Assembly: GCA_051294375.1 (NCBI GenBank)
Contig: CM119264.1
Location: forward strand, 19,537,590 to 19,601,589
Source of the DNA: Paraspadella gotoi
Taxonomy: Eukaryota; Animalia; Chaetognatha
Length of the DNA: 64,000 nt
Direction: 5' to 3'
In this document: in pieces, positions 18,501 through 51,500 of the stretch
Numbering within the stretch: position 1 is the first letter of the stretch
Layout: every line of letters starts with the position of its first letter
Notes under the pieces: model-generated
What the model was told of the DNA's origin: nothing
Databases searched by the model: none
What the model saw: the letters and a program-made list of their open reading frames with translations, nothing else
Program-made: the position numbers and the translations under genes

Positions 18501-21500
18501 AAACTTATTATAGCCGAATAACGATTATGTGTTATAAGCTTTTTTTTTACCATCGGTTTATACGCTTCCTTCGTTCCATCCACGATTAGAATGACTCTGG
18601 GACTGTCTCATGCGTCGCTCGCAACAAAGGTGGTGAAGCACGCTTCTCCGTCCAACTCACAGTGCTCGAACGGGAGACGATCGTTCGACCGAGATTCGTC
18701 GATCGCCTACCAGCGAGCCTCACCGTGCAGGAGGGTAGGGAGATAGTTCTCAACGCTACGGCCGGTAAGTTCAATCAGTCCCTCCGTCCGTCGCTTTGTC
18801 CGTCCATTCGTCCATCAACTGCTTTTATTTTTGGCCCTGTAACTGTCAGTGGCCCCTAGCAAGTACTCATTCACAAAACCTCCCCCTACAGACGGCGTTC
18901 CGCCTCCCATGTTGACGTGGCAAAAGGACGGCGTTGTAGTAACGGACGGCCCAGGGTGTCGCATTTCCACAAACGGAGTGCAGACGCAACTCACCATCGA
19001 CGTGGCCACCGGTAACGATTCCGGTTGGTATCAGTGCAGCGCCGTCAACGTGGGCGGTACTGCGTCTACCAGGGGGAAGGTGCTTGTCGAAGGTGAGTTA
19101 GTGGGTACTTGTTCAATAGACTTGATGTTTATTTTCCGCGTGACAGCCACTAGCGTCAGCAACGACGACTAAAACGATAACGTCGTCAGCATTGAGATGA
19201 AGTGCCTTTGCACAAAGACGAAAACTAATATAGTATTCAGTACACATAGTTTTGCAAGATTAATTGTAGAAACTGATACTGATGCTTTTTTTTTTAAAGC
19301 TTATCCCGGCCAACCCGCTCAGCGTGTAACGCTGACTGGAAGACAAGTTGAGAAGCGGGAAGATGATGAAGACAAAACGTAAGTACTTGTCAATATTTGT
19401 GATTAAAATCCGTAACAAAATTTTTAGAATAAAAAGGTAGATCTTAAAATTAAATTAAAATTATCTTATTTTCTATTATTTTTATTTTCAAAAAGCTTTG
19501 TTTCTATAATTAAAAAGCATTAATGTTTTTTTAAAAATAACAAGTTAATTTTTTTATAATCAATAAGCTTAATTTTTTTTTATGTTTGGGGCGAGGGGTA
19601 TTTCGTAGCGAATCCACTTTTACTAGAAGATGGTTAATAACCCCATTGGTTATGCCTTCTCGAACTGTTAGAAGCGAAATGTTTAAATTTGGAAAAACAA
19701 TTTTTTAATAAAGAAATGTTTTAAAGATTACCATCGTTTTTCTTTGACCTATTAAAAATTAATTCTATACATACTTTTAATTCTCGGGCATATTATTTTG
19801 AAACCAACGAGATCACTTTTATTCTTAGCAATATGGCGTTCTCCAAAGATAGAATGCGGGAGATTGAACTTCTCGAAAGAAGGTCATCTCAAAAAGCCGC
19901 TCAACTCTTTGATGCGGAAAGGTCTCTTATTTTTTTTCATATACTAAAACGATTTTATGATATTATAAACAATGTTTCTGTGGACAAAACAAGCGTCGTT
20001 CAGATTTCACAGCTTCACTTTGATAAAAACTACCGCTTTCTAAAAAAGTATTGTTGAAATATACTAATTACGAAGGAACTAACGAAAATAAATATAATAA
20101 TTAGTAAAAGCCAATTGCGCATGGTTTGATCAATTGCTTTTGCAGTATTATTCCTGCTACATTTGTTTATGTCATTGGCAGTTTTCATGTAATATTTTTT
20201 CGCTGAACGAAATTTATCCGTAAAACTTTTTATTTTTTGTAAAAAAATAAACCACCTGTCGTTTTCGTACCCGCACGCCTCCCAACAATCATTTTTGTGA
20301 GCCCACTTTTTGTTTATTTTTTATGCTAAATCCGCTGACACATTATTTTGCTTAAAATTTTTAAATATCTTCAATATTCTTACCCCTTTTAAATACTCAT
20401 AACGATATATACTATGTATATATGTGTATTTATATATTCCGAATTTGTTCGCCTTCTTCTTTCCTTGTCACCTATCCTCAACCATTCCTCAACCGCCCCC
20501 GCATTCCCTTTTTTCCTTACTTCACACCAACAACCCCCCTTCTACCGTCCGCACGTTATTCGGCCCGCACGACAATCCTCTTTCCCCACCCATCCCAATA
20601 AAATCCTCCAGCGGTGAGTTTTCGACGGAGCGTATGAAAGCCCTGGCCGCCCTCGAGACGCGTCACGAGAAGCGCATGCGCGCACACGAGAAACAGCGCG
20701 CGCAAGCCGGCGCCAAGTCAGCGAATATGTCGCGGGAGCGCGTCAAGGCCATCGAGGCTTTGGAAACGAAGAAACGTGTTATCGAGGATGCCACCACCGT
20801 CGTTCCAACTTTCCTTGATGAGAAGAGAATGAAGGCAATCGAGGATTTCGAGAAAAAACATGCCGAGGCTCAGCGAGAAGAGTACGTGTGTTGAGAGAGA
20901 TTGTGTGTTGTCGTTGTTCGTGTCGTTATTGTAATTATCTCGCCTGACGGGGCAAAGCCCGTCTTGGCGATATAAAGCGAAATTCAGGCTTCTTTGTGAT
21001 GTCGTCGTCGTTGGCGTCGTCAGCATCACGCTTTTTTGCAATCATGGCTATTGAAAGTGAGATATCATAGGGAGTTGAAATTTTATATATGGCTTCTAAT
21101 CATCAAGATCTTTAAACTTGTCAAGTTGTCATGTTTCATATCAATATTCGTATTTGTTTATGTTTTATTTACAAAACAAAAATGTTTTAATTATATGTCG
21201 CTTTCTCTCTTTCTTATAATTATATGTCGCTCTCTCTCCCTCTTTCTTATAATTATATGTCGCTCTCTCTCCCTCTCTCTATTTTTCTCCGTCACTGCTT
21301 CTTCTGATTTGTCTAAAAACGAGTTCCGGCTCTGCAGCGGCGGTCCAGCGGCTGTCCAGCTTCTCTCTATCTTTCTCTCTCTCTCTCTCTCTCTGATTAT
21401 TTTTTTTCCTTCTAAAAACTTTTATTTTCGCCATTTATTCCGCTCTTTTTTCTCAAAACAAAATACATGAGAAATGGCCTATTAAAAAAAAAATGAAAGA

Positions 21501-48500: not shown

Positions 48501-51500
48501 AAAAACAATGTTCAAGTAATTATGAAATTGGTACAACCCATCACAGATGAATGAAACCCGGAAACAGAGGAAAGGATTAAGGTAGAGGATTCCGGAAGAG
48601 GAAGAAGATTCTGGAATGATTTCGAACGGGATTTTGGAAGCCAAGTCCAGAAAAGGAACAATAGTTTCCGGAAGAGGAAAAGAAGGTTCCAGAAGAGGAA
48701 GAGGAGGATTCCGGAAGAGGAATCTGGCTTCGTCTACTTGCCCATTATAAATAGCCTCTGTTTCTGCTTTGATTCATTCTGTCCAAATATTGACACCGTC
48801 TTCATGTCTATTTTCTGATAATTAAACTCCACTTTGATTTCATATAGAAATCCCTGTCTACTTACTTAAATGTGGTGGCAGTGGTGGGATTCGAACCCAC
48901 GCCTCATATAATAAATAAGCTATCTTGCCCCTGACTTTGGACAGGCTTTGGTCGTTTAAGCCCTCCATCACTCTTGCAAGATAATGACATAGCAAGTCCC
49001 TGCATGCTTTCAGTCAAGACTCTCTCACAGTCTCGTTTATTCATTCCCAGAGTATCTGGCTTCCCTATCAATGAAATGGTTTAATATTTCAAAGTATGTT
49101 TTAATTGTATGAAAAGACCAGTATTAGATCGGGAATATTATATTGTACTCCACCTCGCATCAAAATATGAAATTTTATGAAATTGGTACAACCAATACAA
49201 AAATTATCCATTCATTTAATAAATAAGATATCTTGCCCTTGACTTTGGACAGGCTTTGGTGGTTTTTTGGAAGCATCTGAATACCATTGAATTAGATAAT
49301 ATAATTTATTTAAACAAAAATTATTTAAGAAAAATTTTTATTCAAAGTAATAGTTCATACTATATCTGACAATGACCAAAGATAGCATTTTTTAGATTCT
49401 AAAACTGTTTTCAGCAAGCTTTCAGATTCTCAGCATAAGAATTTTCAATCTCTTATAGTTTACGAGCAATCATTTTCAAAAGTTATGCCTTTGAAAAATT
49501 ATTGTTTATTGTTTTTATAATATTATGAATGTTGAATTTGATTTTAATTCACAGCAAAAAGACTGAAGCTATTGCTACTGCGGCAGAATGGGAAAAAATC
49601 AATTTTATTCCTAACCTTGAAATAAGTTGCATACAAAGAGCGATTCAGGGGGTAGAAGCAAGAAGGGCAATAGTTGAAGAACAATTAAAAGCTGTTAATT
49701 TATTACCTCATGAACAGAGGTATTATACATTTATGACCTTATAATCTTTTACAATCTTCGTCTACAATTTCAAATCTATTTTTTTTAGGATTCGGTCTGA
49801 GGCAGTTGAAACGTTAGAGAATAGACTGAGTGAAATAGAAGAGCAAAGAAAAAAAGTTTATGATGTTCCTGAAAATAAGTAAAAAAAATCATATAATAAT
49901 AATTATTTATAATACCCAAATTAGGCCTTTCAGAAATTTTATGGGTTTTCAAATTATTTTAGGAATGAACGCACAAATGCAATTATCCAGCTTGAATTAG
50001 GTTTGCAAAAAGATCAAGATGAAAGAAAAAAAAAATTTGATTATCATTATGACAATAGGTAACACGATTTCAAAGAGGACTAAACTTTATAATGTCCTCA
50101 GACGTATTTTTCATAGGCAAAATCAGATTTCAAATATATTAGGATAATATTAATATTTAAATCTTTAATTTTTGACCTATGATCTTTTTAAATTTTGCTA
50201 TTTTTTTGTTTTTTGATAGCCTTTATATAAATGCAATTGAGAAGCTCGAAATACAATTGAGTAATGCTGAAAGAGAGAGAAACAATATGGAGCAACAAGC
50301 ACAGGATACATTGGAGAAGTAAGTTTTAATGTATTTATTTAGTTTATCGTAAGAAAAACAAAGAAACTGAAATTTTTTTTACAAGGAACGGACACAATAT
50401 ATACTATATTGCTAAAAACTATAAAAAAATCTTCAAAAAATTGGCAAAGTGTTTCTTTAATTTTTTAAAAAGATTTGTTATAAATTGTAAAATTTGAATG
50501 AATATTGAAAGTTAAATATTTAAAGTATGTATAATTTTTAGGGAACGAAAATCTGCAATAAATGAGCTTGAAAATAAATTGCTACAGATGGAGAAAGAGA
50601 GAAAAATATTAAAAGATTGTTCTACTGATACAAGGTAAAAGTTTTTAATACATAAACATTTAATTATGACACATGGCAAAAAATTTTGACTAAGTTAACA
50701 GTATTTATATTATAAAAGATATGCATTAGGCAGCTAGGATTTTTTTGTGTGTCTTAATTTTGTTAAAAATGTATATATTTTCGTTTGAGCAGGTGCTCAA
50801 TTAAAATTTTTGACCTAACTTACTGAGATAGGCCACCCCTCAAGCCCTCATAGTAAAAGTAATATTATAATTTTAATAGCAACAATAAAAGCATTAAAAT
50901 CGAACTTTTTTTTACCTGAAAGTAGACTTCAAGACTAGAAATTCCTTAACCGTTAAAAATTAACCGTTAATAACGTTGAAACATTTTTTTTAACTTAACC
51001 GTTAATTTTTTTTTTATCGGTTAAATTTGGTTAAATTTTATTTTTTGGAATTTTTATATTTTGTTAAAAAATATTTTGTTTTCTTTAACTTATTATGTTT
51101 TGAAAGAAATTTTTCTTAAAACTTTTTTTTAATATAAATATAAGTTTTTATATTAAGAAAAAGTTTTAAATTTTATTTCAACAACAATTTATTTCATAAA
51201 GAAACGTACTTGTTACAAGTCTTTGAAATGGTGCGAAATTTGTGTAAAAGAAGGAGAGATAGAGAGAGAGAGAGACAGAGAAATAGAGAGAGAGGGAAAA
51301 GCTTCTATTTTCATTTCTCTCTCTCTCTCTCTCTCTCTCTCTCTCTCTCTCTCTCTCCTTCTTTTGCACAAATTTTGTATACCATTTTTGAAATAAAATC
51401 GTTGAAATAAAATTTAAAACTTTTTAAAAAAATATTTACTACACAACGAAAAGAAAGGACAATAAACAGAGTTTTTATATTTATTATTGATTTATTTTAT

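Follow-up and report, generated by a model that had tools for sequence, protein, structure and literature searches.

Spliceable repeats, predicted to be helical, occupy the place of the central Ig block in a kettin/Sallimus orthologue of Paraspadella gotoi and its marine relatives

The window considered here is a 64,000-nucleotide stretch of Paraspadella gotoi DNA (positions 19,537,590 to 19,601,589 of contig CM119264.1, forward strand, assembly GCA_051294375.1), and it carries part of a gene that, judged by sequence comparison, is an orthologue of kettin/Sallimus (Sls). Between the exons for immunoglobulin (Ig) domains Ig3-Ig4 and those for a single kettin-type Ig domain lies an array of 15 small exons encoding tandem units of about 31 amino acids. 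The array occupies the place of kettin Ig5-Ig29, 25 of the 26 Ig modules there being gone, and in marine relatives it is spliced into the kettin gene, alternatively. The original prediction of an Ig-less array of helical repeats in a titin/sallimus gene stands, and the replacement and the alternative splicing go beyond it.

All 14 exons first proposed are present with the proposed lengths (1,647 nucleotides in sum), bounded by AG and GT (or GC) and in phase 2 on both sides. The total of 14 has to give way to 15, however, as an exon at 48340-48420 had been overlooked. All 15 preserve the reading frame, and their 1,728 nucleotides translate into 575 amino acids with zero stops; the acceptors are AG and the donors GT, the sole GC donor being at 42827 (exon E7). 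The array holds 18 units with a clear core, h-x-A-I-x-x-L-E-x-[RK] (h, hydrophobic), plus a degenerate nineteenth at the start of the 165-nucleotide exon E11. When all six frames of the window were scanned with a profile made from the units, no others came up; it gives the diverged E10 only 5 bits, so that an exon of still greater divergence might escape it. Chance was assessed with stop-free AG..GT phase-2 segments of 78-105 nucleotides within 19.1-55.1 kb on both strands. The core occurs at 16 distinct starts among 95 plus-strand segments, all within 14 of the 15 exons, a count that is circular because the motif was derived from them, and in 0 of 86 comparable minus-strand segments. Neither strand has an Ig-profile match from 18.9 to 55.1 kb. 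The array and its surroundings are as follows, all on the plus strand; P numbers denote proteins or other records of the relatives, and percentages are identities to them.

17431..19095 (+), outer limits approximate: exons for a pair of Ig domains orthologous to kettin Ig3 and Ig4, the upstream anchor of the array (Pfam I-set; best match of a relative's Ig3/Ig4, mapped to the window)
19300..19378 (+): E0, connector exon into the array, phase 1 to phase 2 (splice sites; equivalent segment before the array in relatives)
19829..19921 (+): E1, 93 nt, one unit of the short basic-tailed type (47% to P0014)
20612..20881 (+): E2, 270 nt, three units (64% to P0006)
22847..22942 (+): E3, 96 nt, one unit (58% to P0034)
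28302..28382 (+): E4, 81 nt, one unit (77% to P0019)
32568..32660 (+): E5, 93 nt, one unit and a heptad extension; left out of some relatives' proteins (60% to P0003)
38646..38738 (+): E6, 93 nt, one unit; left out of some relatives' proteins (70% to P0018)
42639..42827 (+): E7, 189 nt, two units, GC donor, predicted helical hairpin (68% to P0020)
45181..45273 (+): E8, 93 nt, one unit (63% to P0012)
48170..48265 (+): E9, one unit, 96 nt or, with a start at 48176, 90 nt; neither counterpart nor specific partner found in relatives
48340..48420 (+): E10, 81 nt, one diverged unit (matched to P0002/P0012 by position only)
49555..49719 (+): E11, 165 nt, one degenerate and one clear unit (50% to P0017)
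49789..49878 (+): E12, 90 nt, one unit (59% to P0002)
49963..50058 (+): E13, 96 nt, one unit (counterpart by position only)
50220..50318 (+): E14, 99 nt, one unit (41% to P0035)
50542..50634 (+): E15, 93 nt, one unit (50% to P0002)
53380..53478 (+): E16, 99 nt, phase 2-2, cassette exon without the repeat, in only some relatives' proteins (62% over 24 amino acids to P0002)
54429..54515 (+): E17, 87 nt, phase 2, without the repeat, leads into the retained kettin-type Ig (comparison with relatives)
55141..57389 (+): single kettin region-2-type Ig in two exons, about 55141-55279 and 57249-57389 (Pfam; mapping of relatives' Ig domains)
58750..59062 (+): spacer+Ig exon, best match Ig31 (spacer profile 24.6 bits on a relative's copy)
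59211..62582 (+), limits approximate: rest of Ig31, then a long S31-like spacer divided among several small exons, and the first part of Ig32

E7 is the best conserved two-unit exon. E11 is about seven residues, or one heptad, below the length in relatives, and an internal AG at 49627 could give its second unit alone.

The evidence for splicing comes from transcript-like proteins of the marine relatives; in P. gotoi the array is known from the gene sequence alone. A query with the spacer+Ig exon at 58751 gave four proteins at 93-94% identity (4 of 27 candidates), from a source labelled merc, which we take to be proteins assembled from marine eukaryote metatranscriptomes, with chimeras possible. 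These four and their cluster members read through the array, whose exons are joined to the kettin Ig domains of the same proteins. A specific best partner in the relatives exists for 12 of the 15 exons, at 41-77% identity versus about 62-92% for the Ig exons. Twelve of the 14 consecutive joins are seen (E8-E9 and E9-E10 are missing), together with eight skipping joins: E0-E2, E0-E3, E1-E3, E2-E17, E4-E7, E8-E10, E8-E16 and E8-Z. The E0-E2 skip is found in a nucleotide contig (P0005), the E1-E3 skip additionally in a JGI record (P0031), and short ENA records stop at matching exon boundaries. Because the same exons recur in the window's order and in varied subsets, so that anything from 4 to 13 units separates one and the same pair of Ig domains, we conclude that in the relatives the array is spliced into this gene, and alternatively. 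It also appears to be still expanding by block duplication, since the three-exon block E13-E14-E15 is present twice in tandem in P0158 and P0162. The relatives have in addition an extra unit Y and a 159-residue exon Z, the first part of which is one unit (P0003, P0009 and P0002; between E8 or E15 and E17); a search of the window for Y and Z found neither.

The identity of the gene follows from its domain order, namely Ig3-Ig4, the array, one kettin-type Ig+spacer, Ig31, S31 and Ig32. When compared with the 35-Ig kettin of D. erecta and seven other kettins, the Ig domains of a relative map to kettin Ig3, Ig4, one region-2-type Ig, Ig31 and Ig32-34, and its long spacer begins like S31. Among these eight references, the orthologous best matches are clearest in four arthropods, with Ig3 and Ig4 also in Priapulus, and weaker in nematodes. 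Residues 1-720 of one relative retrieved 209 long proteins, and of the 120 matches listed 102 were treated as kettins and 18 as hemicentin-like controls. Orthologues of both Ig4 and Ig31 are present in 64 of the 102 kettins among the matches listed, and in these 64 the two are separated by a median of 26 Ig domains (range 10-26), with no Ig-free gap longer than 109 amino acids. The relatives P0001, P0006, P0009 and P0011 have one Ig each in that interval and Ig-free gaps of 179-361 amino acids. Kettin is marked by about 25 Ig+spacer modules (regions 2-3), and here only one is found. Because one Ig remains between the anchors in the relatives and the window is Ig-free from 18.9 to 55.1 kb, the array takes the position of Ig5-Ig29. 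The kettin set is skewed to Ig-rich ecdysozoan proteins of 2,633-5,000 amino acids, and other reduced kettins may exist.

None of the 102 kettins among the matches listed has such an architecture, and a search for publications, which leaves aside most subscription work (including much of the classic work on kettin and invertebrate connectin), found none on such an array, in line with the claim that it had not been described. In six Ig domains the lineage has about 35% identity (35-37%) to arthropods, as compared with 47-68% among arthropods. A distance tree puts it outside both arthropods and nematodes, with bootstrap values of at most 50 for the exact place in a set without a spiralian kettin.

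Passages of two papers describe the replaced block as binding actin, one module per protomer, and alpha-actinin (PMC3207145, PMC2196178). The first also describes the block as the actin-binding core, highly conserved from fly to nematode, and places the kettin N-terminus in the Z-disc, with modules 5-20 covering half of the Z-disc width (PMC3207145).

The units are best seen in P0002, where 13 of them, 27-33 amino acids long (median 31), can be read from one continuous chain; Ala at -1 and Glu at +4 are each kept in 12 of the 13, counting the core Ile as 0. Arg(-4), Ala(-1) and Arg(+6) accompany a hydrophobic a/d pattern at 0, 3, 7, 10 and 17, with Glu at heptad position e and Arg at g. Two types can be told apart: the N-terminal units (E1-E4 and E6) have the core and a basic tail and no second heptad, and the later ones have heptads to +17. 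Proline is scarce in the array (12 of 575 residues), and the net charge is acidic, -20 in 575 residues, kettin spacers being acidic as well. AlphaFold, given the array as a single sequence, predicts one helix per unit (17-30 residues) with breaks near the exon ends, in agreement with the helical repeats first proposed. The mean predicted local distance difference test (pLDDT) values are 67 and 72, and the predicted template modelling score (pTM) is 0.28 in both models. Hairpins are modelled for the two-unit exon E7 (residues 61-121) and for residues 343-403. The units are thus predicted to be amphipathic helices with coiled-coil heptads.

Searched against 1.84 billion protein representatives, the unit profile has 14 matches at E up to 0.001, none of them a named titin or kettin; 13 are array fragments from the same lineage, and the fourteenth, P0157 (E 4e-12), is an unrelated 1,949-residue JGI protein with tandem heptad repeats, whose resemblance is likely convergent. 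Metagenome contigs were scanned too, but of 597 and 264 pattern matches none was a relative. The repeat fits no Pfam family, and the weak single-unit matches there, TSC22 (E 0.003) and MlrA (0.098), were treated as generic helices. A WH2/beta-thymosin identity was rejected, since by eye no LKK(T/V) follows the helix in the unit list and there is no Pfam or PDB match; the IQ motif, which is basic, does not fit. Foldseek gave 0 matches to the array model at E 0.001 and the ESM Atlas no usable one. The VIA structure matches (best Z 9.7) are generic hairpins, and two actin-related proteins among them (ranks 8 and 9) stand at background level and are not counted as evidence.

As to function, we tentatively favour, at somewhat less than an even chance, the reading that the array is a splice-tuned docking or anchoring track where the thin filament ends at the Z-disc. 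The 15 frame-preserving exons stand where flies carry 25 more Ig+spacer modules, and each 31-residue unit, as an amphipathic helix, would dock on a repeating partner, most likely actin, by its face A(-1)-I(0)-x-x-L(+3)-E(+4)-x-R(+6). Exon choice would then set the length of the gripped stretch, and each muscle type could in this way tune the anchoring of the protein at the sarcomere end. With about 23 helical and 8 extended residues a unit would span about 5.9 nm, close to one actin subunit along the strand, where the subunit spacing is 5.5 nm. The Z-disc location is inferred from kettin; the partner and the ruler role are inferred as well.

We favour docking because the array fills the binding block of kettin and because single units are skipped freely, which fits independent binding units. 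A further reason is that the short N-terminal units, presumably too short for a coiled coil on their own, keep the core without the second heptad. Finally, the constancy of Ala(-1) and Glu(+4) within one chain argues for it: near-invariant small and charged residues beside a hydrophobic stripe suggest a fixed partner surface. The -1/0/+3 spacing recurs in actin-binding helices described in passages on Lifeact (L6, I7 and F10; PMC7717565) and WIP (L36, L37 and I40; PMC7407642). The core positions in common with spacer motif II, on which the weak spacer-profile matches land, also count for docking.

Several observations weigh against docking. Position -1 is Ala in the units and Leu in Lifeact and WIP, the array is net acidic, the nearest PDB neighbours of the unit profile are coiled coils, a coiled-coil protein (P0157) scores as strongly as noted above, and the modelled hairpins of some adjacent units would bury the docking face. 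In the comparison with kettin spacers, the lack of motif I and the scores of single units point the same way. A passage of PMC3207145 gives spacer motif I as IXXXQH(P/E); in our set it is followed by [SG]-L-E-K-I-Q-E-L-E, and 1,840 of 2,176 spacers could be anchored on it. Motif I is absent from the column tables of the array units. A spacer profile built from 600 unanchored spacers scored 1,575 of 1,576 held-out spacers (median 30.6 bits) and gave 24.6 bits for a relative's copy of this gene's own spacer, the normal linker near 58790 that had been pointed out before. The best single unit reaches 1.3 bits in the window and 2.4 bits in P0002, values that 51 of the 299 and 41 of the 289 shuffles scored (out of 300 each) also attain. 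The summed score of the array, 9.8 bits, speaks for docking, since just 4 of the 299 and 4 of the 289 shuffles attain it, but a charged helical stretch of C. briggsae KETN-1 that is unrelated to the array has a higher sum (11.8 bits).

Whether the units are kettin spacers at all is a related question. The units have h(-3), I(0), L(+3) and E(+4) in common with spacer motif II (IQXLE), the Gln being mostly absent, and their weak spacer-profile matches land on this motif; I-x-x-L-E is also an ordinary coiled-coil heptad. In the reverse direction the unit profile matched 0 of 2,176 spacers at 3 bits, and hhalign gives a probability of 0.1% for unit against spacer profile. The profile comparison therefore recognises no relationship, and the proposed descent from kettin linkers is not borne out. 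Homology to the spacers is neither shown nor excluded by these sequences, as position and a five-residue pattern favour it and the profiles do not, and the unit may be either a freed spacer helix or a new coiled-coil repeat. C. briggsae KETN-1 (P0093) has a 302-residue Glu/Arg/Gln-rich helical insertion of its own at about residues 395-696, just before its Ig3-Ig4-like pair, so that a second lineage has its own helical insert at a nearby position in the gene.

The main alternative to docking, somewhat less probable, is that the units pair with each other, packing as coiled coils in intrachain hairpins or intermolecular bundles that unzip under load, so that splicing would set the length and stiffness of a helical spring or cross-link. 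The a/d pattern, together with the Glu at e and the Arg at g, would fit such pairing, as would the two hairpins in the single-sequence model, the duplicated E13-E14-E15 block and the net acidic charge. The unit profile has 23 PDB matches at E up to 10, all at E 0.013 or weaker, and many are three-stranded coiled coils. However, the in-register motif R-h-x-x-h-E, described in a passage of PMC3653964 as the mark of a three-stranded coiled coil whose strands run parallel, occurs in its strict form, Arg(g)-h(a)-x-x-h(d)-Glu(e), in only 2 of the 18 window units and 3 of the 13 in P0002 (7 of 18 and 9 of 13 when relaxed). The pTM of both models leaves the overall packing undefined, the fold matches with Z under 10 are generic, and neither the N-terminal units without a second heptad nor the free skipping of single units suits a spring.

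It is unlikely, though the gene design invites the comparison, that the array is an independent invention of the titin Z-repeat, in which each unit would bind the C-terminal EF-hands of alpha-actinin and the spliced number would set the layers of cross-links and so the Z-disc width. Passages of PMC4259493 and PMC11040099 describe the same arrangement of spliced short repeats behind an N-terminal Ig pair, kettin Ig+spacer is described as binding alpha-actinin (PMC3207145), and A(-1), I(0) and L(+3) suit positions 4, 5 and 8 of a 1-4-5-8 motif. Position 1 of that motif, on the other hand, is mostly Arg (57-67%) rather than hydrophobic, the unit has 31 and not 45 residues, and there is no PDB or Pfam sequence match to titin Z-repeats.

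Still less probable is an inert, partly disordered PEVK-like spacer of which length and charge alone matter. The array exons do diverge faster than the Ig exons, and in P. gotoi E9, E10 and E13 look eroded, as does the first unit of E11, but the core is held over 13-19 paralogous units and between species, and proline is rare. An artefact, whether pseudo-exons or a nested transcript, is scarcely credible and largely refuted, for although the relatives' proteins are assemblies, possibly chimeric, and the P. gotoi exons come from the genome only, many independent records from four sources give the same exons, order and boundaries with Ig domains joined on both sides.

The rest of the window offers some further observations. 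Upstream of the Ig3-Ig4 pair, positions 1-16000 hold about eight more Ig domains, and the gene extends past both window ends. The S31-like spacer (59400-62320) consists of small exons that the relatives also include in different sets; it holds several short L-[KRQ]-[HKS]-[VIA] motifs that resemble one of Drosophila spacer S4 and recall the second half of WH2/thymosin motifs. By eye, possible CTGATGA...GAAA hammerhead-like elements lie in an inverted intronic repeat at about 57520 (-) and 58450 (+); an Rfam search of the window and a pattern scan for such elements gave no match. Two dispersed intronic repeat families were also seen by eye, one SINE-like and the other in tandem copies of about 360 nucleotides, at about 24100, 36250, 39400 and 39800 and at 30600-31450, 48900-49250 and 52300-52540.

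Among known systems, nebulin and Xin also consist of tandem short repeats, a nebulin repeat being about as long as one actin subunit, but an identity with either was rejected, as the 18 units have no Pfam match at E up to 10. The repeat forms a protein family that Pfam does not model. Short coiled coils such as Coil-Ser type trimers and the Hsp104 middle domain, with A-I-x-x-L-E-x-R-L heptads, are the best, non-significant PDB matches; no homology is implied, and the units here differ in being tandem, one per exon, with 8-residue breaks. Spacer motif II of kettin is alike in carrying h-x-x-I-x-x-L-E on an amphipathic helix, but has Lys/Arg at -1, Ser/Gly at -4 and a Pro/Glu-rich tail, whereas the unit has Ala, Arg and a heptad extension.

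The titin Z-repeats of vertebrates, according to passages of PMC4259493 and PMC11040099, are likewise short, differentially spliced repeats after an N-terminal Ig pair at the Z-disc end, but they have 45 residues, whereas the units here have 31, form charged heptad helices and have no sequence similarity to them that we could find. It is a speculative and rather improbable idea that a whole lineage of marine plankton, perhaps the arrow worms, dropped the Ig-spacer actin track of kettin and independently evolved a ruler like the titin Z-repeats, in which the number of spliced cassettes would set Z-disc width or thin-filament grip in each fibre. If true, such a ruler could underlie unusual sarcomeres, for example the alternating types described in a passage on chaetognath secondary muscle (PMC2020476). 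Small units whose number varies naturally would allow one to test two things: if a titin-family protein can be anchored to the thin filament by nothing more than a short helix, and if the width of the Z-disc is set by the number of repeats in animals other than vertebrates.

The closest comparison is with kettin/Sallimus itself, that is, Drosophila Sls and nematode KETN-1, which shares with the gene described here Ig3, Ig4, Ig31-34, the start of S31 and a region-2-type Ig with a two-motif spacer, all in the same order. It differs in having 10-26 Ig domains between Ig4 and Ig31 among the matches listed, where this lineage has one Ig and a spliceable helical repeat. That the ends of kettin were kept while its Ig+spacer block was exchanged for an Ig-free, spliceable helix repeat shows that the block is replaceable.

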